Counted from the first letter of the stretch, positions 6,170-33,392 are shown. The stretch is DNA of 64,000 bases from Clostridiales bacterium (GCA_017513085.1 JAFWDK010000009.1:1-64000); one strand, 5' to 3'. Numbers and translations are program-made. The notes: generated by a model from the sequence alone, not told the origin.

Positions 6170-7795
6170 ATGCTGAAAGTATTTCTGGTCGAAGATGAAT
6201 ATGTAGTCCGGGAGGGCATTAAGAATAACATTGACTGGCAAGCGCACGGCTATGAATTCTGTGGCGAGGCCGGCGATGGAGAATTAGCATTTCCGATCAT
6301 TTCGAAAGAACGACCGGATATTGTGATCACGGATATAAAAATGCCGTTTATGGACGGATTGACTTTGAGCCGGATGATCAAGGAGAAGTTCCCCTGGATC
6401 GAGATCATCATCCTGACCGGATACGAAGATTTCCAGTTTGCCAAAGAGGCCATTAAGATCGGTGTATCCTGCTATCTTCTGAAACCTGTAAACGGGGAAA
6501 GCCTGGTCCGTGAAGTGGATCAGATTGCCGAAAAGATCCAGGAAAAGAAAGCAGAACGCGAAGCGGCCAAGCGATACGAAGAAGAAATGCAGGAACGCAC
6601 ATTATACGATAAGCGTGACTTTTTCAATAAACTGGTCAAGGGCGGGCTTCATGCTTCCGAACTGATCGAAGAATCGAAAAAGATCGACATCGATATCACC
6701 GCGCTTCGCTATAACATCATCCTGCTCCGTGTCTGGTCGAGTAAACACGACATCGGAGAATTCTCCAACAGCGTAGTCAAGATCGAAGACGGGATCAAGA
6801 AGATCGCGGAAGAAAACGGGGCACTGTTTTTCGATTTTATCGTGGAAGGCATCGCTCTGCTTTTTAAAGGCGACGATGACCGGGACATCAAGAAGAAGAT
6901 CGACCAGGCCGTATCGAAGATGCGGGTGCTTTTTGATGAGTATAAGCATATCCGCTATTTTGGCGCTATCGGACAAACTGTCGGCAGAGTCACAGAGATC
7001 CATACTTCTTTTGACTGGGCGAGCCGTGCTTTTGCGCACATGTATCTGACTTCGGAGAATGCTTTTCTGGTAGGTTCTGAGGAAGGGCTCCGTCCCGAAA
7101 ACGAAGCCGGCATTCTCTCGGAAGTGGATCCGCAGCATATCGACCGGAAACTGGTGAAGCGCTTCCTTCGCGGAGGCGAACCGTCCGAGATCACGTTCTT
7201 CCTGGAAGAGTATCTCAATAACATCGGGAATAATGCGATCCGGTCTGCCATGCTCCGACAGTACATTGCCATGGATATGTATTTCTGTGTGGTGGATTTT
7301 CTGGAAAACGAACTCGGTCTTTCCAGAAAAGAAGTGGACGAGAAAGTGGACCTTCCTAATAGCGAAGTGCTGGCTGACGAAAACAAGACATCGGATTATC
7401 TGCTGGAACTTCTGGAGCAGGCGTTGTCATTCCGTCAGGATCACAGCCTGGGAAGATACCACGATGTGATGAAAGAGGCAATTACTTATATTTCCGAGCA
7501 TTATGCGGAAGAGGAACTGTCGCTCAATACACTGGCGGCGCAGGTGAATTTCTCGCCGAATCACTTAAGCGCGATCTTCAAACAGGAGACCGGCCAGCCT
7601 TTCATCAAGTATCTCACGGACTTCCGTATGGATGCGGCAAAAGAACTTCTCCGGCGTTCTTCGAAGAAGAGTAATGAGATCGGTATCCTCGTGGGGTACA
7701 AGGATCCGCACTATTTTTCGTATCTTTTTAAGAAGACGCAAGGTATTACGCCGACGCAGTACAGGAACAAAGGACTTGGAGAACCAGAGGAATGA
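6170..7795 (+). CDS. YesN-type response regulator (REC + AraC HTH)
   Basis: LVEDE, PDIVITDIKMPFMDG; C-terminal GYKDPHYFSYLFKKTQGITPTQYR. Confidence 0.92.
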   Translation: MLKVFLVEDEYVVREGIKNNIDWQAHGYEFCGEAGDGELAFPIISKERPDIVITDIKMPFMDGLTLSRMIKEKFPWIEIIILTGYEDFQFAKEAIKIGVSCYLLKPVNGESLVREVDQIAEKIQEKKAEREAAKRYEEEMQERTLYDKRDFFNKLVKGGLHASELIEESKKIDIDITALRYNIILLRVWSSKHDIGEFSNSVVKIEDGIKKIAEENGALFFDFIVEGIALLFKGDDDRDIKKKIDQAVSKMRVLFDEYKHIRYFGAIGQTVGRVTEIHTSFDWASRAFAHMYLTSENAFLVGSEEGLRPENEAGILSEVDPQHIDRKLVKRFLRGGEPSEITFFLEEYLNNIGNNAIRSAMLRQYIAMDMYFCVVDFLENELGLSRKEVDEKVDLPNSEVLADENKTSDYLLELLEQALSFRQDHSLGRYHDVMKEAITYISEHYAEEELSLNTLAAQVNFSPNHLSAIFKQETGQPFIKYLTDFRMDAAKELLRRSSKKSNEIGILVGYKDPHYFSYLFKKTQGITPTQYRNKGLGEPEE

Positions 7796-20791: not shown

Positions 20792-21337
20792 ATGGCTAAT
20801 CCGAATCCGTACTCCGGCACGAAGACCGAGAAAAATCTTGAGGCTGCATTTGCAGGAGAATCCCAGGCAAGAAACAAGTATACCTATTTTGCATCCGTCG
20901 CGAAGAAAGAAGGCTACGAACAGATGGCAGCGCTTTTTCTGAAGACGGCAGAGAACGAAAAAGAACATGCAAAGATGTGGTTCAAGGAACTGAAGGGTAT
21001 CGGTGATACGAAGGCCAATCTGGCGGCTGCGGCGGATGGTGAGAATTACGAGTGGACGGATATGTATGAGAGCTTTGCAAAAACCGCGGAGGAGGAAGGC
21101 TTTGCAGATCTGGCGAAGAAGTTCCGCCTTGTTGCGGCTATCGAGAAGCACCATGAAGAGCGTTATCGTGCGCTTCTGAAGAATATCGAGACTGCTCAGG
21201 TTTTTGAGAAGAGTGAAGTAAAGGTTTGGGAGTGCAGAAACTGCGGTCACATCGTAGTTGGTACCAAGGCTCCGGACGTTTGCCCGACTTGTAATCATCC
21301 ACAGTCTTATTTCGAGGTCAGTGAAGCGAATTACTGA
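20792..21337 (+). CDS. rbr: Rubrerythrin
   Basis: [24 protein letters not shown] and a C-terminal rubredoxin WECRNCG...CPTCNH. Confidence 0.95.
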
Positions 21338-21346
21338 GAAATCAAT

Positions 21347-22408
21347 TCATCTGTACATGCGGATCGCGGAGGCAAATGCCAGCGATCCGTATTTTTTTGC
21401 ACTGACCAGCTCGCCGAACTTTTTGGCATTTCCCTTGATCGGCTCTTGGTCCGGAAGGTGTATCTCGTACCCGATCATGTTCCAACGAAGATGAGAGAAG
21501 ATATGCTTGCCCGTTCCCAGTACACGGATATCCGGCTCGATGAAGGAAGCGGCAAGAGAACTATCGCCGCAAAACTCGAGTAGATTATCCTTCAACCATT
21601 TTTTTACTTCGTGATATTCCATATTCCCGGGAAGATCCACCAGTTCGAAAAGACCGGCGAGTAGTCCGGAAGACGGACGCTTGTGGACAAGTATCTTCTT
21701 ACCGACAAAAATGCGTAGGATCGTATGCTCCTCGACAGGCGTCTCTTTTTTCGTTTTCTTCAAAGGAAAGTCTTCCTGTTTCCCAAGAAGATTGGCGCTG
21801 CACTCCGTAGCAAAAGGACATGCTGTGCAACGGGGGCTCTTGGGTGTGCAGATCAGGGAGCCGAAATCCATCAGAGCTTCGTTAAAATCTCCCGGTTCTT
21901 CCGGAGGAATATCCTTCGCGACGCGGGAATAAACTTCGTTATAGGTTGTTCTTTCCGAAGGGATCATCGGCAGGGCGTAAAGTCGGCAGTAGATGCGGAT
22001 ACAATTACCATCCACAGCAGGAACGGGCTCCTGAAAAGCCTGTGAGGCAATGGCCCCGGCCATATACGGGCCGATGCCGGGAATCCGGATCAGAAGATCA
22101 GAAGATTCGGGAAGCTCTCCATCAAAATGCTCACAAACGTATCTGGCGCCACGCATCAGGTTTCTGGCACGCGAATAATAACCGAGACCTTCCCAAAGCT
22201 TCAATACCTCATCTTCCGAAGACGCGGCCAGTGAGCGGATGTCAGGAAAGTGTTCCAGAAAACGCGGATAATAATCGAGAACGGTAGTCACCCGAGTCTG
22301 TTGCAGCATCGCTTCGGAGATCCAGGTACCGTAAGGCGTGCGGTCGGTCCGCCAGGGAAGGCAACGGTGATTGTTCCTATACCAGGAGAGAAGTGATTCT
22401 ACGTCCAT
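21347..22408 (-). CDS. mutY: A/G-specific adenine DNA glycosylase
   Basis: WISEAMLQQT, WEGLGYYSRARNL, HhH IPGIGPY, VDGN and the Fe-S motif CTPKSPRCTACPFATEC. Confidence 0.93.
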   Translation of the reverse strand: MDVESLLSWYRNNHRCLPWRTDRTPYGTWISEAMLQQTRVTTVLDYYPRFLEHFPDIRSLAASSEDEVLKLWEGLGYYSRARNLMRGARYVCEHFDGELPESSDLLIRIPGIGPYMAGAIASQAFQEPVPAVDGNCIRIYCRLYALPMIPSERTTYNEVYSRVAKDIPPEEPGDFNEALMDFGSLICTPKSPRCTACPFATECSANLLGKQEDFPLKKTKKETPVEEHTILRIFVGKKILVHKRPSSGLLAGLFELVDLPGNMEYHEVKKWLKDNLLEFCGDSSLAASFIEPDIRVLGTGKHIFSHLRWNMIGYEIHLPDQEPIKGNAKKFGELVSAKKYGSLAFASAIRMYR

Positions 22409-22947
22409 GGCAGAAGCGCGATCAAAAGAGAAAATGCATGCGCGATCGGAGCGAAAAACTTCTTCTTGGAAAGCTTACGTCCAAGTTCTGAGAAAAACTC
22501 TTTGTTGGCACAATGCTTGTCGGCGAGCATGACCAGAATGCTTTCACGGTATCTCGGCGGAACCGGAGTCAGCGGAAACATGTGGCGCACAATAATGTTT
22601 TCTTCAATAGGTGTCAGATCAAATTCGCGTCTGGCGTTCTCCAACGCAATTTTAGGATGCGCAAAGCCATGGAGTTTATCCAACTTGACTGTGTGCCAGT
22701 CGTAGAGAAAGTAGTCGTGAAGAAGCGCGCCACGCACAAGCTGGTCTTTCTTGAATCGGAAGGGAAGATGCATAGCTATCGAAAGCGCGGTCTTAGCTAC
22801 GGCCATGACATGATCGTAGCAAGTACAGGTCCCGTGTTGGATATACTGACGTAAAGGCTCCAGTTTTCCGCTTGCAAGGATCGGAGCCGCCAGGGAATCA
22901 AAAAGAATGTCCAACTTATACTGTCGCTTCAAAAGGTCTCTCCCCAT
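22399..22947 (-). CDS. HD-domain phosphohydrolase
   Basis: QHG...H, RGALLHDYFLYDWH, HGFAHP and HMFP...ADK. Confidence 0.88.
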   Translation of the reverse strand: MGRDLLKRQYKLDILFDSLAAPILASGKLEPLRQYIQHGTCTCYDHVMAVAKTALSIAMHLPFRFKKDQLVRGALLHDYFLYDWHTVKLDKLHGFAHPKIALENARREFDLTPIEENIIVRHMFPLTPVPPRYRESILVMLADKHCANKEFFSELGRKLSKKKFFAPIAHAFSLLIALLPWT

Positions 22948-23174
22948 TCATACGCATATCTAATAACATTCTAATACATTTTGAGCGGTATTTGAATATG
23001 AGTAGAAACTTTTTCATAACCCGAACCGTGACAGCAGTTACCGGTTTATCTTTCCCGAAAAGGTCGGAAAGGCGATTTAACAAGGGATATTATGTTCTTG
23101 GAGTATATATTTTTCCTTATCTTTGCATGTTATACTTTAAACTGATAAAAAATTTTATTACGTGGAGGGGTGCT

Positions 23175-26100
23175 ATGAAAAAGAGAAGTATTTTTTCGTT
23201 AGGTGGTGTGCTCGCGCTAAGTGCGGCGATAGTGCTTTTTGCACCGAAACTGTCTTCAAGAGTTGTTCGCGCCGGTGTCGAGTCGGATGGCTCTGTAAAA
23301 CTTGATGCAAGTAATTTCCCGGATGCAGTCTTCCGCTCCATCCTGGCTGATAGAGATAAAGACAAAGATGGCTATTTATCTCAAAAAGAACGTCAAGCCG
23401 TTAATCGCATTTTTATCAGTAATGCGGAATGCAAATCTATAAAAGGAATCGAGTATTTTGAAAACCTTGACACTCTCACAGTATGGAATTCTTCGATCAG
23501 CAGTGTGGATCTTTCAAAGAATACTGCCTTGACATCGGTCGAGCTTAAAGTAAAAGGCATGACAAGCCTGAACGTATCTAAGAATACAGCTTTAAAGATA
23601 TTGGAGATTCATTCAACTGCGGGAGCTGATGAGATTTCATCTTTGAATCTTAAGGGTGCTACTGCATTGGAGACTTTGGATTGTTCCAATAATGCACTTT
23701 CATCTCTTGATATTTCTGCCAATAATAACCTTAAGACGTTGAATTGCAGTTATAACCAGTTTGCATCGCTTGATTTTTCAAATAACAGTACCCTGACAAA
23801 AATCATCTGTGGCAATAATCCTTTAACCTCTTTGAATTGTTCCAATATGCCGTCTCTGATTTCGCTGGATTGCACCATGTATTCGAAGCCTTTACTTCTG
23901 AAAAACTTAAATGTTACCGGTGACACGAAGTTAGAAGATCTGTCTTGCAAATACCTGAACATTACAGCGTTGGACCTGTCTACATGTACGTCGTTGAAGG
24001 ATCTGGATATTTATCGTGATCCTTATTCCTCGGCCAAATCGGATCCTATGACCAGCCTTGATCTTTCTAATAATACGCTACTGGAAACCGTAGATTGTAC
24101 GGCGAATGGGTTAACGAAGTTGACCCTGCCGACCAGCACGACCTTATCCGAGATCCAGTGCCGGAACAATAAGCTTACGGATCTGAATGTGAAAACCCTA
24201 TCGGGACTGACAAAGTTAGATTGCAGTAGCAATCAGCTTACCAAGTTAACGATCGGATCCTTAAAACAGCTGACAGAACTGGAATGTCAGAGTAATGCGC
24301 TAACAACGCTAAGTGTTTCCGGCTGTTCCAAACTTTCTAAATTGAACTGCAGTTACAATCGCTCCTTGGCAACACTTACGCTACCCGGTTCAGGTGCATC
24401 GCTGAAAAATCTTACCTGCAATTATAATGTCCTCACTGCATTGGACCTGTCAAAGTATACAGCTCTAGAGTATTTGGACTGCTCAGTAAATGCTATTGAA
24501 TCTTTGGATGTTTCCATGTTGAAGGAACTTACATACCTGAATTGTTCAGCTAATAAACTGATTTCTCTGGATGTATCAAATCTTGGAAAGTTGAAGAGAC
24601 TTTTTTGTAATTACTCTTCCTCTTCGACGGGTACGAATATAGGAGAAAATTCTAAGCTCAAAACTCTAAATGTCAGTGGGGCAACGTCGTTACAGGAATT
24701 GGAGTTTGCTTCAAATGAGATATCCTCTATTGATCTTTCCGGATTAAGTGATCTTCGTAGATTGATTTGTTCAGGAAATGCACTGGTTTCGTTGCAATTA
24801 CAAGATTCCCCACTGATTGAAGAAATCACTTGTTCAAACAATGAGTTGACATCTATAAAACTGGGAAGCAAAGAAAACCTTACAGAGTTGTTATGCTACA
24901 GAAACAAGTTTACTACTCTTGATCTGTCATCTGCTCCGAAATTGGAACAGCTTTCTTGTCACACAAATAACCTTACTTCGCTTAAAGTTTCCGGTGACAT
25001 ATCCTTGGAAAAACTGAATTGTTCTTCCAATGCATTGACCAGTCTGGATGTTTCTAATCTTTCCTCTCTAGTTGAGTTGAATTGCTACAGCAACAAAATC
25101 AAGACGTTGAAACTAAGCGGTGTGACGACGATCAAAAAGCTGTTGTGCTATGACAATCAGATTGCAACACTGGATGCTTCAAAGATTTCTGCTTTGCGTG
25201 AACTAAATTGTAATACGAATCAGATCACGCAACTGAATGTATCCGGGGCAGTAGCTTTAGAAACCCTGAATTGCCGTGAAAATGCCATCTCTGCTTTGGA
25301 TGTGTCGCATAGTACTTCGCTAAGAGAACTTGATTGCGCACATAATCAGATCAAGACTTTGAATCTTTCGAAAAATGCCGAGCTGAAAGAAGTGGAGTGT
25401 GAATACAATCTGCTTGAATCCTTGAATATAGTTGGAGCTACCGCGTTAGAAGAATTAAAATGCACGTGCAACCAGCTTTCCTCGCTGAATCTGTCAAAGA
25501 GTGCAAATCTCTCTTGTTTGGAATGCTACCATAACAAGATTTATGAGCTTCAGTTGGACGGGGCACCGATCATTCTTTCTTGTGTGAAAGCTTATAAAAG
25601 CAAGTGGAGCACGCATTGTTATGATAAGGAATGGCCGTTCTATGTGTATTCGACGAGTAGCGACCACTTCTTTGCGGATCGCCTGGAGTGTGACTTGTAC
25701 ACAGGTCTTATATCCAAGAGTCTTACTCCGACTCCGACTCCGCCCCCGCCGGCAGACGATGCGGTAATGCTGAATTCGGCTAATTTCCCGGATCCGAACT
25801 TCCTTGAATATATTATTAATCAGGGGTTTGATACAAACCATAATGGCGCTCTGGAAAAAGAAGAAATCCAAGAGGTTCATGCAATCTCTTGTGATAATTT
25901 CGGAATCAAATCGATGAAAGGATTATCGTATTTTACGGCGCTTCAAGATTTCTGCTGTAGGAATAACCAGCTGACTTCGCTGGATCTGAGCAATCTGACT
26001 GAATTGTACGGCCTGGCATGTGAGGGGAACCAGATCTCTGTGATCAATATATACAGTTGCCCACGCCTTGTGAAACTTGTTGAGAATTATGATAGACAGG

Positions 26101-27134
26101 TCTCGGATGATGGAAGTTATCATTTCTATTATGGTGGAGTTTCTATAGACGGTTGGAGAGGCATGGTAGATTTGTTTATCGATCCGAATGTTGAGATTTC
26201 TACTGTGAAGCCGACACCTACTCCGACTCCGGTTACACAGAAGTCTGTCGAGATCGGCAAGAGCTTCCAGTATTCCATTTGGGATATCCCGGCAGAAAGC
26301 ATCTCATGGTCGGTGGGGAACACTTCTGTTGCCACAGTCGATGCAAACGGTAAAGTAACAGGAAAGAGCATCGGTAACACGTATCTTCATATTGGACTTC
26401 CGGACGGAAAAACGATCAAGTGCCTTGTTAAAGTGGTCTATCCGACGCTGTCTGTCCGCTATACAGAAAAGACGTTGTATGTTAACCAGACTTTCCAGTT
26501 TGCCGTAACCGGAGCATCCGGTCAGAAGGTAACCTGGTCCGTGGGAAACTCTTCAGTAGCTACTGTGGATCAGAACGGCAAGGTCACGGCCAAGAGTGCA
26601 GCGAATACATATCTTTATGCCAAGAGTGCGGACGGCCGTGTTGCGAAGTGCCTGCTGAAAGTCGTTGATCCGGGCCCGCTCGGAATCAACTACACAGAGA
26701 AGACAGTCTACTTGGGTCAGAACTTCACATTCACAGCAAAGAACGCCGGCATCCTGACTCCGACCTGGTCAGTGGGTAATACCGCGATTGCAAAAGTAGA
26801 CAGTAACGGAAAGGTTACATCTGTTTCGGCCGGCAACACGTATCTTTATGTGAAGACAGATGATGGTCGTTCGGCAAGATGCCTGGTTAAAGTAGTTGAC
26901 CCGGGACCATTGAGCATCACCTATACCGAGAAGACCATCAAGGTTGGCAGTAGCTTCCATTTCTCTGCGAAAAACCCGGCTGGACAGACAGTTTCCTGGA
27001 GAGTCGGAAACACAGCGGTTGCTACAGTCGATGCAAACGGCAATGTGACTGGCAAGAGCGTCGCAAATACCTGGCTTTATGCAAGTACCCCGGACGGCCG
27101 AGAAGTCAGATGCCTGATCAAGGTCGTATCATGA
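23175..27134 (+). CDS. Large secreted Cys-containing leucine-rich-repeat protein with C-terminal Ig-like (Big_2) repeats
   Basis: Signal peptide; NFPD...D.DKDG.L cap twice; many LxxLxCxxNxLxxLD repeats; four WSVGNTxVATVDxxGKVT-type repeats. Confidence 0.9.
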   Translation: MKKRSIFSLGGVLALSAAIVLFAPKLSSRVVRAGVESDGSVKLDASNFPDAVFRSILADRDKDKDGYLSQKERQAVNRIFISNAECKSIKGIEYFENLDTLTVWNSSISSVDLSKNTALTSVELKVKGMTSLNVSKNTALKILEIHSTAGADEISSLNLKGATALETLDCSNNALSSLDISANNNLKTLNCSYNQFASLDFSNNSTLTKIICGNNPLTSLNCSNMPSLISLDCTMYSKPLLLKNLNVTGDTKLEDLSCKYLNITALDLSTCTSLKDLDIYRDPYSSAKSDPMTSLDLSNNTLLETVDCTANGLTKLTLPTSTTLSEIQCRNNKLTDLNVKTLSGLTKLDCSSNQLTKLTIGSLKQLTELECQSNALTTLSVSGCSKLSKLNCSYNRSLATLTLPGSGASLKNLTCNYNVLTALDLSKYTALEYLDCSVNAIESLDVSMLKELTYLNCSANKLISLDVSNLGKLKRLFCNYSSSSTGTNIGENSKLKTLNVSGATSLQELEFASNEISSIDLSGLSDLRRLICSGNALVSLQLQDSPLIEEITCSNNELTSIKLGSKENLTELLCYRNKFTTLDLSSAPKLEQLSCHTNNLTSLKVSGDISLEKLNCSSNALTSLDVSNLSSLVELNCYSNKIKTLKLSGVTTIKKLLCYDNQIATLDASKISALRELNCNTNQITQLNVSGAVALETLNCRENAISALDVSHSTSLRELDCAHNQIKTLNLSKNAELKEVECEYNLLESLNIVGATALEELKCTCNQLSSLNLSKSANLSCLECYHNKIYELQLDGAPIILSCVKAYKSKWSTHCYDKEWPFYVYSTSSDHFFADRLECDLYTGLISKSLTPTPTPPPPADDAVMLNSANFPDPNFLEYIINQGFDTNHNGALEKEEIQEVHAISCDNFGIKSMKGLSYFTALQDFCCRNNQLTSLDLSNLTELYGLACEGNQISVINIYSCPRLVKLVENYDRQVSDDGSYHFYYGGVSIDGWRGMVDLFIDPNVEISTVKPTPTPTPVTQKSVEIGKSFQYSIWDIPAESISWSVGNTSVATVDANGKVTGKSIGNTYLHIGLPDGKTIKCLVKVVYPTLSVRYTEKTLYVNQTFQFAVTGASGQKVTWSVGNSSVATVDQNGKVTAKSAANTYLYAKSADGRVAKCLLKVVDPGPLGINYTEKTVYLGQNFTFTAKNAGILTPTWSVGNTAIAKVDSNGKVTSVSAGNTYLYVKTDDGRSARCLVKVVDPGPLSITYTEKTIKVGSSFHFSAKNPAGQTVSWRVGNTAVATVDANGNVTGKSVANTWLYASTPDGREVRCLIKVVS

Positions 27135-27171
27135 CATGGAAGAACTAAGGACTCTCTCGTAGCGATAGAAC

Positions 27172-27207
27172 AAGACGGGCATTTCCGAAAGGAGATGCCC
27201 GTCTTTT
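27172..27207 (+). terminator. Rho-independent terminator
   Basis: AAGACGGGCATTTCC-GAAA-GGAGATGCCCGTCTT plus T tail. Confidence 0.85.
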
Positions 27208-27262
27208 GTATGTTTGAAGAGATATATGTAATCTTGTGAAGTGAAACAATTACAGTATATAT

Positions 27263-28129
27263 TCACAAATCCTCGCCATAGTCGCGCTGAATCTGGTTTG
27301 CCTCTTTTACGAGAACTTGTCCCTCGTCAGAAGTCAGAAATTCACGTATGCGTTGTATTTCCATATTGGGGTTATCTTTTCCGAATATCATATATATCGG
27401 ATGCTGCAGTGGATAACCGGAATCAAATGCCGTATATCCATTGACTTTTATCATTTTTGCGCAGGCGTGGGAATACATTTTCGTGAAGTAAGACCAGAAC
27501 GCGTAGCATATGGCGCCTGGATAGTCGGCTACGTCGTCAATTATACCGGGCATGGTTGGTACTTCTTTATGATTTATATCCAGAGGCGTCTTTCTTAATA
27601 ATTTAGTAAAGCATGTATGGCTTCCATTTCCATCTGTCAACTGGTATGTTCTGACTATGAGATCGGGACCTCCTAGTTCTTTCCAATTCTTTATTTTGCC
27701 AAGATAGAGGTCTAGTATATTATTTGTAGTCAAATCATTTACAGAGTTTTCTTTGTTAAGTATTATTGCAAGCGGTTCCATCAGAATTGGAACAAATTCA
27801 TACTCTCGTCCCGATTCGATCAAAGATTTTCTTTGGCTTTCGGATGGTTCCGTAGAGAAAAGAATATCTATATCATTTCTGCATAGTAAACTGTATCCGT
27901 CACCGGTAGCTTCTTTGTACAGGGTGAATCCATTCCGATAACTTTCTTTGTCGTAAATGCTTTCAACAATTGTGGCAACTAGAGGATAAAAAGCACTGGT
28001 GGCTCTCATACGGAGTGTTTTATCTTTTACTTGAAAATCTGTCCTGAACTTTTTTAGAGCATTGCCTTCTCTAAAAGGGATAAATCTTCTGACATCTGTC
28101 TTGATGACAATATCTTTTTTATTGATCAT
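27263..28129 (-). CDS. PstS-like (PBP superfamily) substrate-binding protein lacking a signal peptide
   Basis: ATSAFYPL, ENSVNDLT...LYLGKIKNWKELGG and GSHT motifs; RBS AGGAGG before ATG 28129. Confidence 0.75.
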   Translation of the reverse strand: MINKKDIVIKTDVRRFIPFREGNALKKFRTDFQVKDKTLRMRATSAFYPLVATIVESIYDKESYRNGFTLYKEATGDGYSLLCRNDIDILFSTEPSESQRKSLIESGREYEFVPILMEPLAIILNKENSVNDLTTNNILDLYLGKIKNWKELGGPDLIVRTYQLTDGNGSHTCFTKLLRKTPLDINHKEVPTMPGIIDDVADYPGAICYAFWSYFTKMYSHACAKMIKVNGYTAFDSGYPLQHPIYMIFGKDNPNMEIQRIREFLTSDEGQVLVKEANQIQRDYGEDL

Positions 28130-28388
28130 TTTCGGAAATCCTCCTCTGATAAATGCGGACACGATCTTGACATGACCGGATAAGTTGTGTGGAGAAAGGG
28201 GTCCTCCCAATGCCGGTATATCTGCCTGGATCTCCCAATATATGGGTGGTTGTAAACTGGTGCTTAAGTGCTATAATCACATGTATATTGATGTGGTCAT
28301 GATATTTTATTCAATTATAGCATTTTCCCTGATTTGTGGATATGGCTATTTGAATGTGTTGATTGCCGGGGTTGAGGGTGAATAATAT

Positions 28389-29750
28389 ATGAGGGAATTC
28401 CAATACACGCATTTTTATTCTCATGAATTTGATGCATATAATCTGCCTGGTTTTGTTCCGCAGATCATTGATAAAGACTATCTGAAAGATTTAGGTGTGG
28501 GGGTTACTCCATCTTCGGAAACTATGAAGCGACTGTTTGAAGGATCAGTTGTTTTTAAGAAAAGGTTTGAGGAAAGAACGTTGTTGCCGCTTTCGCGTGC
28601 AGTGCAAACGGACATAGTACCGGAAAAAGTTGCTACGGAGATACATAATTATACGGGACGCTGCCCAACACTTACATTTGAGATAAACCCCGTGAAGGGC
28701 TGCAATGTGGGATGCCAGTATTGTCTTGTTTCGGATGGTGTTCATGAACAGCAGATCAATATACTGGGAAATTATCATCTCTATGTTAGAAAACTGCTCT
28801 CGGAGATGAACGGGTCTTCGCAAAAAGAGGTGAGTTCTGAAGATATCAAGAGAAGAAATCAGCTTTTGGCTGAACTTGCTTCTGCGATAGAATCCGCGCC
28901 AGACAAAAAAACTGAGATTGAAAATAAGATCACTGAGATAAGTAGAGGGAAGAATTGGAACCATTTTTACTATTTTTCGCCTAAGACGGAAGCTCTTCAG
29001 GAAACTACGATCAAGACAGGAGTGGCACATCGGATCTTAAAAGAGTTTATCAGACATTTTGAGGAATACCCTGATTCCAATGCGAGGTTGTTTGTTGCTT
29101 CCAAAGCTGGTGTAAAGCATCTTCTATACGAATACGAAGGAGAGACTATTCTTGATCTGTTTGTCCGTCTAAAGGATAAAATGCAGTTCAACACAAGCGT
29201 TTCCATCATGCCGAACGAGCTCCGGAATATTCTTGAACCATATGCCGCTCCAATCGAGGAACGCATGAAGGCTGTTGATTTATGCCAACAAAACGGGATC
29301 CTTGCACAATCGGCACTTGTTCAGCCGATAATCTTGCCGTTCCTTACAGAAACCCAAATCAAAGAATTTTTCGACATGCTGAAGAAACACAACATAATAA
29401 ATTATAAACCTGAATTTCTTACAGCGTGTATGGAGAATCTAGCTATGATCGGCCAGTATCTCGGTTACTTTGATAAAAATCTTGAAAGAGCACTTTATGA
29501 TGACTACATCATGCCGTCGAATGCAGACCATAAGAAACAGCGGGGGAGAACAGCACCGGACAGAGCGCTATCAAAAGAGAGTATTACAAAAATGATGAAC
29601 TACACGAAGAGCATAGGATTGACTACCAGTATTTGTTATTGGGTGAGAAATCAACTGAAGATTGGGAATGACGTGATCCCCGTCATTAACCAAAACGGCT
29701 TTCAGTGTTTGGGATACCAGTCTCAACTTTTTGACTTGAACAAAAAGTAG
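28389..29750 (+). CDS. Radical SAM protein, spore photoproduct lyase (SPL)-like family
   Basis: EINPVKGCNVGCQYC (CX3CX2C), LEPYAAPIEERMKA and QNGI...VQPII. Confidence 0.8.
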   Translation: MREFQYTHFYSHEFDAYNLPGFVPQIIDKDYLKDLGVGVTPSSETMKRLFEGSVVFKKRFEERTLLPLSRAVQTDIVPEKVATEIHNYTGRCPTLTFEINPVKGCNVGCQYCLVSDGVHEQQINILGNYHLYVRKLLSEMNGSSQKEVSSEDIKRRNQLLAELASAIESAPDKKTEIENKITEISRGKNWNHFYYFSPKTEALQETTIKTGVAHRILKEFIRHFEEYPDSNARLFVASKAGVKHLLYEYEGETILDLFVRLKDKMQFNTSVSIMPNELRNILEPYAAPIEERMKAVDLCQQNGILAQSALVQPIILPFLTETQIKEFFDMLKKHNIINYKPEFLTACMENLAMIGQYLGYFDKNLERALYDDYIMPSNADHKKQRGRTAPDRALSKESITKMMNYTKSIGLTTSICYWVRNQLKIGNDVIPVINQNGFQCLGYQSQLFDLNKK

Positions 29751-29769
29751 ATCTGTTACCGGAACTGGT

Positions 29770-31173
29770 TTGCCAAGACAGAACAGACTGATAACAGATG
29801 ACCTGTTAAGAAGGTTCTATATGCTAGAAGGTTTATCGAATAAAGCTCTTTTTGAAAAGATCCATTCGGATTATTTTCCATATTATCGTTCATGGTGCCA
29901 TGATTTTCCTATCGTTGTTTCTACCAAGCGTGATCGAGAACTTGAAAGACTGCATGGTATCCTTTATCGAGCTTGCGAGTTTTATGTATATCATTATAGG
30001 GATTATTTGAATATCATTCCCTATTCGGATAAGGTTTTAGAGATTCTGGACTATTCTTCGCGGTTTCCTTTTCGAGCGGGCACCTTTCGGCCTGACTTTA
30101 TTATAGACAAAAACGGCAAAATATTACTTTGTGAAATCACCTCGCGTTTCTTCGCAAATGGATATTTCATGTCATATTTCATGGAGCGGGTGGGTTCTGA
30201 TATTGCTTTTGCTTCAGGACTTACTGATTACCGTTCTTACTTTGACGCTTTTTTTGACTATATGGCGGATATGTGCCAAGGTGATTCCGATGAGGGGATA
30301 AATAAACTGCTTGTTCTCAAAAGCGAAGACAAATCTGATTCCATAAAACTGTATGTACCGTTTTACCAAGCTCTTGGTTTGCAGGTGAATATTATCGAGG
30401 CAGGGAAAGTTGAAGAGAATATCGATCTTTTCAAAGACAGTATGATCGTCAGTGCACTAAATCAACAAGATCTGCTTTCTTTGTCTATAGATACACTAAA
30501 GAAATTGGCAGAGAATGGTATGCGGAATGACTTTCGGACGATTTTTTTGTTGCACGATAAACGGATGTTCAATCTCTTTTTTAGAGATGATTTCACAAGC
30601 AGATTTCTTGATCAGGAGCAGACTCGCTTTCTTCGTGATCATGTAATCAGGACAGCGATTCCAAGGGTTACAGGGCAGAACAATGATGGTCAAGTGCAGA
30701 GTAATGATGCGGAGCTTAATAAAGATGTCATCATGTGGGAAGATGCAAAAAAGAATAAAGACAGATACATTTTGAAACATCATTGTCTTGGAAAAAGTGA
30801 ACAAGTATACGCTGGACCGCTTACGGATCAAGTTGAATGGGAGAGCTTGTTTGAATCCGGAAAAGTAAATGAAATGATACTTCAACCGTTTATTGAGCAA
30901 AGGATATATACCTCGACTTGGAAAGGTTGTGGAATGAAAGGGAAAACCACGCCGAATGAAGAAATATATCCGGTCTGTGAATCAGATGGTTATTCCGGAT
31001 ACACACTACGAGAATATGTTTCACCGTCTATCCTTTGTGTAGATGATAAGTATTTCGGTTGTGGGCTTTTTAGGACATCCTCCTGTGCAGTCATCAATCA
31101 GGGAGATGCGCATAAAATGGCTCCGTTACTTACCGATGAAATCGATAAGCTTGGAGAGTGTAACATTCTCTAA
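29770..31173 (+). CDS. Circularly permuted ATP-grasp amide ligase (glutathione/glutathionylspermidine synthetase-like)
   Basis: FRPDF...LCEITSR near the N-terminus; NDFRTIFLLHDKR, YILKHHCLGKSEQVYAG and ILQPFIEQ. Start codon uncertain (TTG). Confidence 0.7.
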   Translation: MPRQNRLITDDLLRRFYMLEGLSNKALFEKIHSDYFPYYRSWCHDFPIVVSTKRDRELERLHGILYRACEFYVYHYRDYLNIIPYSDKVLEILDYSSRFPFRAGTFRPDFIIDKNGKILLCEITSRFFANGYFMSYFMERVGSDIAFASGLTDYRSYFDAFFDYMADMCQGDSDEGINKLLVLKSEDKSDSIKLYVPFYQALGLQVNIIEAGKVEENIDLFKDSMIVSALNQQDLLSLSIDTLKKLAENGMRNDFRTIFLLHDKRMFNLFFRDDFTSRFLDQEQTRFLRDHVIRTAIPRVTGQNNDGQVQSNDAELNKDVIMWEDAKKNKDRYILKHHCLGKSEQVYAGPLTDQVEWESLFESGKVNEMILQPFIEQRIYTSTWKGCGMKGKTTPNEEIYPVCESDGYSGYTLREYVSPSILCVDDKYFGCGLFRTSSCAVINQGDAHKMAPLLTDEIDKLGECNIL

Positions 31174-31202
31174 ATTGACTTACAAGGTATCGTAAGTCAA
31201 CA

Positions 31203-31231
31203 TTGACACTTTGCCCCTAAGAATATAAACT
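31203..31231 (+). promoter_or_regulatory. Sigma70-type promoter for the tkt/xylose cluster
   Basis: TTGACA-17 bp-TAAACT. Confidence 0.6.
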
Positions 31232-31269
31232 AAAAGGCAAGTGAGCTCGAGCTCTCATTTTTTTCTACT

Positions 31270-31291
31270 TTTTCGAAAGCGATTTCGAAAA
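31270..31291. promoter_or_regulatory. LacI-family operator-like palindrome
   Basis: TTTTCGAAAGCGATTTCGAAAA (GAAANCGNTTTC core) downstream of the promoter; a LacI gene lies in the same cluster. Confidence 0.6.
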
Positions 31292-31397
31292 GGCATCCTT
31301 CTCCTCAAAAGATGAGGTTTCGAGCCGCTTTTCCCTGTCAGTAATACGCTTTTGCGTACGAAAAGATAAGATTTTGAAGAAGGAGTGTATGGAACTT

Positions 31398-33392
31398 ATG
31401 AGTACACAAAACGAAACAAATGCAATTTCGGCCATCCGCGTTCTTTCTGCGGATATGATCCAGAAAGCAAATTCCGGTCACCCGGGTCTGCCGCTTGGCG
31501 CAGCAGCTATGGCTTACACGATCTGGGGAAAGGAGATGGCTTTTGACCCGAAGGATCCGAAGTGGATCAACAGAGATCGTTTCGTTCTCTCCGGTGGTCA
31601 TGGTTCCGCTCTTTATTATTCTTTGCTGCACCTGTTTGGTGTAGGCGGTCTGTCGATCGAGGATCTCAAGCAGTTCAGACAGCTTGATTCCAAGACTCCG
31701 GGTCATCCTGAGTATGGTCATACAGCAGGTATCGATGCTACAACAGGTCCTCTGGGCGCCGGTCTTTCCATGGCAGTCGGTATGGCGGTTGCTGAGGCAC
31801 ACTTGGCAGAAACATTCAACAAGCCGGAATTCCCGGTAATCGACCATTACACATACGTTATGTGCGGTGACGGATGCCTTATGGAAGGTATTTCCGAAGA
31901 AGCACTTTCTCTTGCCGGTACACTTGGCCTGGAGAAACTTATCGTTCTTTACGACTCCAACAGCATCAGTATTGAAGGTTCCACAGACATCGCGTTCACA
32001 GAGAACGTTCGTGGACGTATGGAAGCTTGCGGTTTCCAGACACTCCTTGTTGAAGATGGTAATGATGTGGATGCTATTGCTAAGGCTATCGAGCTGGCTA
32101 AGGCAGAGAAGACGAAGCCTTCCTTTATCGAAGTAAGAACGATCATCGGTTATGGTTGTGAAGCCAAGCAGGGTACACCGTCTGCTCACGGTGAGCCGTT
32201 GGGTGAAGAGAATATCGCTAAGATGCGTGAGACACTGGGCTGGCCTTGTGCAGAGTCCTTCGTGGTACCTCAGGAGATCTACGATCATTATGCAGAGCTC
32301 GGTGCGAAGGGTACTGAAGCACATGCGAAGTGGGATGCCCTTTTCGCAGAGTATGCGAAGGCTTATCCGGATCTCAAGGCACTTTGGGACAAATACTTCA
32401 GCAATGATTATTCCGCTCTTCTTAACGATGAAGATCTGTGGACAGTAGACGATAAGCCGCAGGCTTCACGTGCTCTTGGCGGTAAGGTCCTTAACAAGCT
32501 GGCTGACCGTATCCCGAACCTCATCGGTGGTTCTGCCGACCTGGCTCCGTCCAACAAGTCCTACATGAACGGCAAGGGCGATTTCAGCAAGGCTGACCGT
32601 GCCGGAAGAAACATGCACTTTGGTGTACGTGAACTGGCTATGGCCGGTATCTCCAATGGTATCCTGCTCCATGGCGGTCTGCGTTCCTATTGCGCGACAT
32701 TCTTCGTATTCAGTGATTACACCAAGCCGATGGCTCGTCTGTCCGCTTTGATGAATATCCCGCAGATCTTCATGTTCACACACGATAGTATCGGTGTTGG
32801 TGAAGACGGTCCGACACATGAGCCGGTCGAGCAGTTGACCATGCTCCGTTCTATGCCGAACTTCAACGTATGGCGTCCGTGCGATGCAACCGAGACAGTT
32901 GCATCCTGGGTAGCTGCAATCTCTTCCGAGAAGACACCATCTGCGCTGGTTCTTTCCAGACAGAATCTTATGCCGCTGACCACTTCCTCGAAGGAAGCGC
33001 TTAAGGGTGCTTACATCGTAGCGAAGGAGTCCAAGGAGACACCGGATGTGATCATCCTGGCTTCCGGGTCCGAAGTTGAACTCGGTATCAAGGCGAAAGA
33101 TGTTCTTGCCGGCGAAGGTATTGATGCACGCGTAGTCAGCGTTCCGTGTCTGGATGTATTCCTTGCACAGGATAAAGCATACCGCGATTCCATCGTATTG
33201 CCTTCTGTTACGGCAAGAGTTGCTATTGAAGCCGGTTCTTCCTACTCTTGGGGCAAGCTTGTCGGCCTTGATGGTGCTTACATTACTATGGACACGTTCG
33301 GCGCCAGCGGTAAGCCGTCCATGCTCATGGAGAAGTACGGTTTCACAGTTGACAACGTGGTAAAGGCTTGCAAAGAAGTTGCTGCAAAGTGA
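31398..33392 (+). CDS. tkt: Transketolase
   Basis: ANSGHPGLPLG, TPGHPE, GDGCLMEG and THDSIGVGEDGPTHEPVE. Confidence 0.97.
   Translation: MSTQNETNAISAIRVLSADMIQKANSGHPGLPLGAAAMAYTIWGKEMAFDPKDPKWINRDRFVLSGGHGSALYYSLLHLFGVGGLSIEDLKQFRQLDSKTPGHPEYGHTAGIDATTGPLGAGLSMAVGMAVAEAHLAETFNKPEFPVIDHYTYVMCGDGCLMEGISEEALSLAGTLGLEKLIVLYDSNSISIEGSTDIAFTENVRGRMEACGFQTLLVEDGNDVDAIAKAIELAKAEKTKPSFIEVRTIIGYGCEAKQGTPSAHGEPLGEENIAKMRETLGWPCAESFVVPQEIYDHYAELGAKGTEAHAKWDALFAEYAKAYPDLKALWDKYFSNDYSALLNDEDLWTVDDKPQASRALGGKVLNKLADRIPNLIGGSADLAPSNKSYMNGKGDFSKADRAGRNMHFGVRELAMAGISNGILLHGGLRSYCATFFVFSDYTKPMARLSALMNIPQIFMFTHDSIGVGEDGPTHEPVEQLTMLRSMPNFNVWRPCDATETVASWVAAISSEKTPSALVLSRQNLMPLTTSSKEALKGAYIVAKESKETPDVIILASGSEVELGIKAKDVLAGEGIDARVVSVPCLDVFLAQDKAYRDSIVLPSVTARVAIEAGSSYSWGKLVGLDGAYITMDTFGASGKPSMLMEKYGFTVDNVVKACKEVAAK

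Follow-up and report, generated by a model that had tools for sequence, protein, structure and literature searches.

A radical SAM enzyme and an AnkG/Cp1B-type ligase as the probable core of a glycan-tailoring cassette of gut bacteria, apparently trimmed in one Clostridiales genome

Introduction

What does a radical S-adenosylmethionine (SAM) enzyme with an SPL-like predicted fold do beside an ATP-grasp ligase of a family known from fungi? The question is raised by a 64,000-nucleotide stretch of DNA from a Clostridiales bacterium (GCA_017513085.1, JAFWDK010000009.1:1-64000), hereafter the window, in which positions 27263 to 31173 form an islet of three genes. They encode a PstS-like binding protein (PBP) of 288 amino acids with no signal peptide (27263..28129, minus strand), the SPL-fold radical SAM enzyme of 453 amino acids (28389..29750, plus strand), and an AnkG/Cp1B-type circularly permuted ATP-grasp amide ligase of 450 amino acids (29821..31173, plus strand). 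An earlier sequence-only reading had called these three open reading frames (ORFs), and all three are present and intact.

We propose that the radical SAM enzyme and the ligase form the invariant catalytic core of a cassette for glycan tailoring that is conserved among rumen and gut bacteria and trimmed here, and we give this reading a probability of roughly 0.6. The sequence-only reading saw an orphan combination that it did not recognize. The pair is instead the core of a recurrent cassette with WbqC, family 2 glycosyltransferases (GT2), a DesI-like aminotransferase, a Wzx flippase, and a GT-C glycosyltransferase, a context that points to a surface glycan and away from the natural-product, cofactor, or nucleic-acid modification roles first suggested.

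Results

Conservation and neighbors of the pair

A scan of one genome per species, covering 185,579 species, returned 118 stretches with a relative of the ligase, of which 80 were kept. All 80 loci come from metagenome-assembled genomes (MAGs) or isolates from rumen, gut, or feces, and their hosts span at least four phyla, with members of the Lachnospiraceae, Oscillospiraceae, Erysipelotrichaceae, Coriobacteriales, Fibrobacter, Treponema, and Bacteroidales/Prevotellaceae. Of these loci, 74 also encode a radical SAM homologue, and in each of the six that lack one the sequence breaks off within 2.4 kb of the ligase; in the 48 loci taken as full, which have 3 kb or more on both sides of the ligase, the homologue is present every time (48/48). 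The two genes are thus conserved together in other genomes, the point on which the sequence-only reading had staked its proposal. They frequently overlap by a few bases (in locus L003 the radical SAM gene ends at 6977 and the ligase gene starts at 6974), and the ligase and WbqC genes overlap in L105 and L107.

The 48 full loci share a restricted set of neighbors. WbqC is found in 39, a soluble GT2 (GT2a) in 33, a DegT aminotransferase in 23, and Wzx in 14, followed by a further GT2 (GT2b) in 10, a classical ATP-grasp protein in 6, and the PBP in 2; the pair without other cassette genes occurs in none (0/48). Pfam matches bear out these identities (WbqC, PF08889, 6e-61; DegT, 3e-83; Polysacc_synt_3, 4e-99). 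By Pfam and NCBIfam the aminotransferase is nearest to DesI, a type whose product is dTDP-4-amino-4,6-dideoxyglucose, GT2b is nearest to PgfS/ArnC, and the flippase is nearest to the Wzx of O-glycosylation. Some loci also carry a DUF2142/PMT_2 GT-C, Acyl_transf_3, or Glyco_transf_56 protein. Because WbqC, GT2, a DesI-like aminotransferase, Wzx, and GT-C accompany the pair, we read the cassette as one for surface-glycan tailoring. We found no solved relative of WbqC by sequence. In two Lachnospiraceae-type loci (L002:9039-11246 and L003:10286-12295) a DUF2142/PMT_2 GT-C and a classical ATP-grasp_4 protein follow the PgfS/ArnC-like GT2, an arrangement that resembles three-component extracytoplasmic glycosylation systems.

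Outside the cassette the flanks of the loci are unrelated housekeeping genes; the cassette is therefore small and has been placed at many different sites. A quick tree sets the Bacteroidota copies on one side and the Fibrobacter copies as one clade within a Bacillota-dominated group. Copies from Coriobacteriales lie dispersed among those of the Bacillota, with at least three changes forced by supported branches, and at 98% support the window copy joins two MAGs, one of Coriobacteriales and one of Lachnospiraceae.

The closest layout to that of the window is found in a metagenome locus, L100, which reads GT2b, ligase (minus strand), and radical SAM (minus strand), divergent from WbqC, PBP, and DegT. 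Its three corresponding proteins are 60, 76, and 65% identical to those of the window and have the divergent layout seen there; the window looks like L100 minus WbqC, DegT, and GT2b. No characterized pathway matches the cassette, and a search of titles and abstracts, from whose coverage most subscription journals fall outside, found no publication on the radical SAM-ligase pair.

The ligase

The sequence-only reading had made the second enzyme a permuted ATP-grasp ligase, and family membership and fold uphold it. Family PF28486.1, named AnkG_N in the Atlas, is precomputed on P0001, a protein 100% identical to the window ligase, and on 120 of 120 homologues among the matches listed. A local Pfam copy, from which the PF28486 model is absent, gave no match to the ligase (0, GSH_synth included). 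In a phmmer search against PDB the sole sequence relative was 9cjn_A (8.7e-5), which the PDB names "Ligase Cp1B." The same chain leads the structural search: with a model of mean predicted local distance difference test (pLDDT) score 87.7, Foldseek ranked Cp1B (9cjn) at 2.9e-17 with TM scores of 0.68/0.64, followed by human, yeast, and plant glutathione synthetases at 1e-12 to 1e-10 and then by YgiC, YjfC, and GspS. All 29 rows shown, to rank 50, are Cp1B, eukaryotic glutathione or homoglutathione synthetases, glutathione synthetase-like effectors, YgiC/YjfC, putative GspS, GspS, or trypanothione synthetase. The modeled structure thus has the circularly permuted ATP-grasp fold of the eukaryotic glutathione synthetase type.

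Ligase homologues are 38 to 64% identical to the window copy and are less conserved than the radical SAM enzymes, and the window ligase deviates at 0 of the 73 columns that are invariant in 18 homologues. Two loop insertions, at residues ~283 to 305 and ~368 to 391, are each missing in all but one of the 18 aligned homologues; the exceptions are P0100, with a longer stretch of its own in place of the first, and P0058, with a short one in place of the second. Both are modeled in part with low confidence (pLDDT below 50 at residues 285 to 288 and 371 to 390). No longer, fused form of the ligase turned up among 3113 candidates, which is weak evidence. Complex prediction for the radical SAM enzyme with the ligase scored 0.01 against a mark of 0.32, a value uninformative on binding either way.

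The type of ligase bears on whether the pair might mature a ribosomally synthesized and posttranslationally modified peptide (RiPP) or defend against phage. Radical SAM and ATP-grasp pairs occur in RiPP clusters, and the islet was horizontally acquired, so both roles deserve a hearing. The ligase, however, is of the AnkG/glutathione synthetase type and not of the graspetide type, and reading the intergenic stretches and ORF list of the window disclosed no conserved small ORF; in the related loci ORFs were screened only from 60 to 70 amino acids up, a limit that a typical short precursor would escape. PADLOC, for its part, returned no match for any of the three proteins at E values up to 0.01. 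We regard this as the least probable of the explanations considered, with hardly any weight left to it.

The radical SAM enzyme

The CX3CX2C motif noted in the sequence-only reading is C105, C109, and C112, and it is invariant in all 68 aligned homologues; the same 68 share four more invariant cysteines, at positions 92, 299, 416, and 440. The Pfam Radical_SAM model (PF04055) scores 28.1 bits on the window protein in a local scan, with a cut-off of 29.5, and is precomputed on P0121 and P0122, which are 98 to 99% identical to it. A look-up in the ESM Atlas led to "radical SAM" clusters only.

Placement within the SPL family, which the sequence-only reading had also suggested, holds for fold and fails for sequence. 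On an AlphaFold model built on 23 homologues (pLDDT 89.1), Foldseek put SPL (4fhc) at the top, weakly, with an E value of 1.4e-4. In structural alignment 4fhc_A was best as well (VIA Z 18.9, root mean square deviation 3.4, 278 residues, covering model residues 1 to 419), and the second match, MqnE, followed at Z 14.0, about 5 Z units behind. Of the 50 rows listed, some 40, including all of ranks 1 to 40, belong to radical SAM enzymes (Z 8.4 to 18.9); the others are lyases and synthases with a TIM barrel, plus a single designed protein. The model has the partial TIM barrel of the radical SAM superfamily. The SPL family model is nonetheless absent among the NCBIfam matches to the enzyme at E values up to 1, and the family profile finds no SPL chain in PDB at E values up to 10. 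Sequence and profile searches of PDB brought nothing meaningful, the best being Cfr at 0.29 and Spt6, which matched on a low-complexity insert. With a fold match and neither a matching SPL sequence model nor a matching chain, the enzyme is best called SPL-like as a statement about its modeled fold, and not an SPL orthologue.

These results also bear on a possible SPL-like role in which the radical SAM enzyme, helped by the ligase, would repair or modify DNA or some other nucleic acid. The lead of SPL over every other radical SAM structure favors that idea, as do NCBIfam matches to the PA0069 family (37.4 bits, cut-off 360) and the Rv2578c family (26.3 bits, cut-off 430), which are weak, span only ~70 residues, and belong to what we take to be the "DNA repair photolyase" group COG1533. 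The missing SPL model and chain matches argue the other way, and the conserved neighbors of the pair are glycan enzymes and not nucleic-acid enzymes; the mutY gene upstream of the islet lies outside the insertion described below. Ordinary SPL repair, which the sequence-only reading had named as the finding that would overturn it, is unlikely on the same grounds, and we hold any nucleic-acid role to be very improbable.

Homologues in four phyla are 58 to 73% identical to the window copy, which deviates at 1 of 137 invariant columns. A 42-amino-acid helical hairpin is inserted after the cluster loop at residues ~146 to 187. It is present in 36 of the 68 homologues (Bacillota and Fibrobacter) and missing in 32, namely, 28 from Bacteroidota and a small Bacillota/Coriobacteriales clade.

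The binding protein

The divergent gene encodes a PstS-like protein, as the sequence-only reading had it: PBP_like_2 matches with 67 bits (2.9e-18) over a cut-off of 27, and PstS chains in PDB were matched down to 3.8e-16. The narrower model TIGR02136 gives 79.6 bits, under its cut-off of 206.6. As read from the alignment, the N terminus is polar and a hydrophobic signal segment is absent in all six orthologues (6/6). Leu164 aligns to the PstS arginine two residues before DGSGT and is invariant in the same six orthologues. Because that arginine clamps phosphate in PstS, the ligand of the PBP may be something other than free phosphate.

The sequence-only reading had allowed for the PBP as a fixed third partner of the pair, and the comparative record speaks against this. 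Its orthologues appear in 5 of the 80 ligase genome loci, from four phyla and always inside the cassette. A search from the PBP side found relatives in 12 metagenome loci, of which 6 have the pair nearby; among the eight PBP loci that are 43 to 66% identical, six adjoin the pair and two are on cut contigs. Four distant PBPs (L108 to L111), 31 to 35% identical to that of the window, have no pair within 4 to 7 kb, and each shares 65 to 68% identity with whichever cassette PBP from the five genome loci it matches best. The family therefore also occurs outside the cassette, and the PBP is an occasional accessory of it.

The insertion and its host genome

The islet belongs to a larger inserted block. 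In five of five same-genus genomes, 230 to 630 bp separate the HD-domain gene from its neighbor tkt, and blastn homology between the window and these five genomes ends at 22803 to 22839 and resumes at 31200 to 31202. This gap in homology defines a species-specific insertion of ~8.4 kb (22840..31200) that holds the genes for a leucine-rich repeat (LRR) protein, the PBP, the radical SAM enzyme, and the ligase and that is missing from the same site in the same-genus genomes. A search of 59 related genomes, 23 same-genus species among them, turned up the ligase in none, and the site is empty in all five same-genus genomes (5/5), which supports the horizontal acquisition suggested by the sequence-only reading. 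No direct or inverted repeats were found flanking the insertion, all repeats being inside the LRR gene or chance-like, and no mobility genes are visible within it.

Base composition agrees with this picture. The inserted block has a GC content of 0.414, compared with 0.477 for the remaining window. The islet itself (27263 to 31173) has a GC content of 0.399, below every other 3.9-kb window of the 64 kb (mean, 0.477; standard deviation, 0.017; minimum, 0.434), and GC at third codon positions is 0.36 to 0.43 in its genes against 0.53 in tkt. The greater AT richness that first drew attention to the islet is thus confirmed.

The left edge of the islet had been placed at a terminator at 27207. A terminator is there, an intrinsic one belonging to the LRR gene and lying before the 3' end of the PBP gene (27172..27205, plus strand; a stem of 15 pairs, 8 of them GC, followed by a T-rich tail), but the edge of the inserted DNA is at ~22803 to 22839 instead. 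The LRR gene (23175..27134, plus strand) encodes a co-inserted, secreted surface protein of 1319 amino acids with Pfam matches to LRR_4 (1.8e-47), Big_2 (1.3e-26), and LRR_EndoS (2.6e-14), made up of many LRR_4 repeats, four Big_2 repeats with a period of 228 to 231 nucleotides, and two Thr/Pro-rich linkers. Its ATG at 23175 is preceded by GGAGGGG and followed by a hydrophobic N terminus, and the TTG start at 22872 in the ORF list is overextended. We considered this protein as a target of the cassette and set the idea aside for want of comparative support, since no LRR homologue lies near the pair in 92 related loci. Just upstream of the insertion, at 21347 to 22947, are a mutY-like glycosylase gene (HhH-GPD plus NUDIX_4) and the HD-domain gene; relatives keep both genes, which have no connection with the islet, and it is a coincidence that they lie close to an SPL-like gene.

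The host genome (3.06 Mb) is 99.4% complete and, going by the taxa of the nearest matches, appears to be that of a Firmicute of Lachnospiraceae type. On the same contig as the window, at 141 to 147 kb of C4 (L112:7152-12756), lies an operon for RmlA, RmlB, DegT, a GFO/IDH/MocA protein, and an NDP-hexose 2,3-dehydratase, and there is a second DegT locus elsewhere. The operon resembles one for a dTDP-amino-deoxysugar, and no acyltransferase gene was seen next to it. Given this operon and the second DegT, amino-sugar nucleotides would be available in trans, and the operon could supply the amine substrate of the ligase.

Gene starts, signals, and presence in public runs

The probable start of the ligase is ATG 29821, replacing TTG 29770, because AAGAAGG lies upstream, P0001 is 450 amino acids long, and the alignments of 18 homologues begin there. 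The gap between the two same-strand genes is then 70 bp, and the 19-bp gap given in the sequence-only reading must be dropped. The PBP starts at ATG 28129 with GGAGG upstream. A candidate promoter for the radical SAM-ligase operon lies at 28250..28277 (plus strand; TTGTAA, 16 nucleotides, TATAAT, with TG before the -10 element) and matches consensus, its only basis, at 10 of 12 positions. Promoter candidates were scored by a consensus scan, with the expectation taken from shuffled sequence, and the 23 sites in the region are not enriched over the 19.1 ± 4.3 expected. The same caution applies to the tkt promoter proposed at 31203: a promoter-like site is present at 31203 to 31231, but such sites are no commoner than chance. 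A hairpin with 9-bp arms, read from the sequence, directly follows the ligase stop at the right edge of the insertion (31175..31200, plus strand).

Stretches of the islet recur in public runs from 14 gut studies in animals, often sheep; some of these runs may be source DNA. One independent DNA run tiles 21232 to 31574 across both junctions at an identity of at least 95%. Three RNA libraries from two studies yielded contigs with pieces of the radical SAM gene, and three contigs bridge its junction with the ligase gene. These contigs leave uncovered most of the PBP gene and, in two runs, the 3' half of the ligase gene, which is not evidence of silence.

Discussion

What is directly established is a set of folds, family memberships, co-conservation, neighborhood, and an insertion. 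Upon these we superimpose the following scheme. A ligase of the AnkG/Cp1B type would activate a carboxylate as an acyl phosphate and couple it to an amine as an amide; of these two partners, one would in the full cassette be an amino sugar or a sugar-bound acid, provided through the DesI-like aminotransferase. The radical SAM enzyme, by way of a 5'-deoxyadenosyl radical, would make or remodel an unusual acyl or amino-acid-like piece, or else remodel the joined product. WbqC would add a third step, and GT2, Wzx, and GT-C would deliver the sugar, once decorated, to a surface polymer. The trio in the window would work with amino-sugar pathways elsewhere in the genome or make an amide-linked building block alone. 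Because all of its conserved residues are kept, it is probably still active, and by its gene content it appears to be a trimmed version of the cassette.

Several observations weigh against this scheme. The pair's neighbors in the window are the LRR protein and tkt, with no glycan gene in cis, a layout seen in none of the 48 full loci. A PF08889 (WbqC) match is absent from the whole window genome, and tblastn found no remnant of WbqC or GT2b in the window. The trio here could consequently be a functionless remnant or do nonglycan work. Known relatives of the AnkG/Cp1B type produce soluble natural products instead of glycans. Substrates, step order, and activity in the window host are inferred, the chemistry from distant relatives and neighboring genes only, and the labels of those neighbors rest on crude ORF calling and on clustering by BLAST. 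Errors in MAG binning could explain part of the scatter and phylum spread. The RNA-library contigs are a hint of expression, in libraries where DNA may also be present.

Two other explanations draw on these same observations. The trio might make a soluble pseudopeptide or modified amino-acid amide independently of any glycan, as the fungal AnkG/Cp1B pathways do. The nearest characterized ligases do act in natural-product pathways, the pair here stands without adjoining WbqC, GT2, DegT, or flippase in a genome that lacks WbqC, and a signal-less binding protein could hold a small ligand. Yet at least one glycan gene lies beside the pair in 48 of 48 well-flanked loci, the closest layout (L100) includes WbqC, DegT, and GT2b, and the trio here has no gene for export, regulation, or resistance with it. 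We consider a product of this kind unlikely. The trio might equally be an inactive leftover whose WbqC, aminotransferase, and glycosyltransferase genes were lost on or after transfer. That the pair-only layout is absent from the 48 full loci, that WbqC is missing from a genome 99.4% complete, and that the ligase has two lineage-specific, low-confidence loop insertions are all consistent with decay. Decay sits poorly, however, with three open reading frames, with deviations at 0 of 73 ligase and 1 of 137 radical SAM invariant columns, with an arrangement that recurs in runs of 14 studies (some perhaps source DNA) and in an independent DNA run at an identity of at least 95%, and with RNA-library contigs that cover the genes. 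A dead remnant thus strikes us as about as unlikely as the soluble product.

The glycan-tailoring reading invites a bolder proposal, which we advance tentatively and consider doubtful, although less so than either of those explanations. Through radical chemistry on a sugar nucleotide, an amino acid, or another acid, the pair may make a novel decoration linked by an amide, and the trimmed trio may be a self-sufficient submodule making the free building block that other rumen bacteria attach by means of WbqC and GT2. If so, SPL-like radical SAM enzymes would gain their first function outside DNA. The glycan-tailoring reading, should it hold, would have the same consequence: a protein 58 to 73% identical over the Bacillota, Bacteroidota, Fibrobacterota, and Actinomycetota of the herbivore gut would perform a step of cell-surface decoration, a surface trait that likely matters for recognition by phage, by the host, and between bacteria in the rumen, and the AnkG/Cp1B amide ligases would be extended from fungi to bacteria. 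To this the window adds a natural three-gene "minimal set" in a WbqC-free genome and in a cleanly delimited insertion, a convenient starting point for telling which steps belong to the pair.

Comparison with known systems

The cassette as a whole may be compared with the WbqC-containing O-antigen loci of Escherichia coli O121 and Shigella dysenteriae type 7, whose O antigens carry an amide-acylated 4-amino-4,6-dideoxyhexose. The full cassette shares with them WbqC and a viosamine-type (DesI/VioA-like) aminotransferase. To our knowledge, neither locus holds this radical SAM enzyme or this ligase, and the window genome differs from both in lacking WbqC.

The radical SAM enzyme shares with SPL (4fhc) the radical SAM core, SPL-like N- and C-terminal parts over model residues 1 to 419, and a tyrosine inside the cluster motif (CQYC, as read from the sequence). 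It differs in having only 16% identity, no match to an SPL model, a glycan gene context, four extra invariant cysteines in its family, and the 42-amino-acid insert in half of its clade. The ligase, similarly, shares the permuted ATP-grasp fold with glutathione and homoglutathione synthetases (2hgs, 1m0w, and 3kal) and with GspS, YgiC, and YjfC (Foldseek, 1e-12 to 1e-8), while differing from them in an identity of 11 to 14%, in the lack of a gamma-glutamylcysteine context, and in the lack of any Pfam GSH_synth match to the window ligase.

Fungal AnkG and Cp1B are the nearest characterized ligases. PMC12568646 proposes that AnkG couples L-Asp with a carboxylate, describes the E-64 pathway to which Cp1B belongs, and reports Cp1B-like enzymes in "a few bacteria." The window ligase is bacterial and only ~18% identical to Cp1B over the structural alignment, and it is always paired with a radical SAM enzyme, not an Fe/2-oxoglutarate oxygenase, and usually found in glycan loci. 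It nevertheless belongs to the same Pfam family (PF28486), finds in Cp1B its best PDB match in both sequence and fold, and would be expected by analogy to carry out the same chemistry, in which a carboxylate, an amine, and ATP yield an amide.

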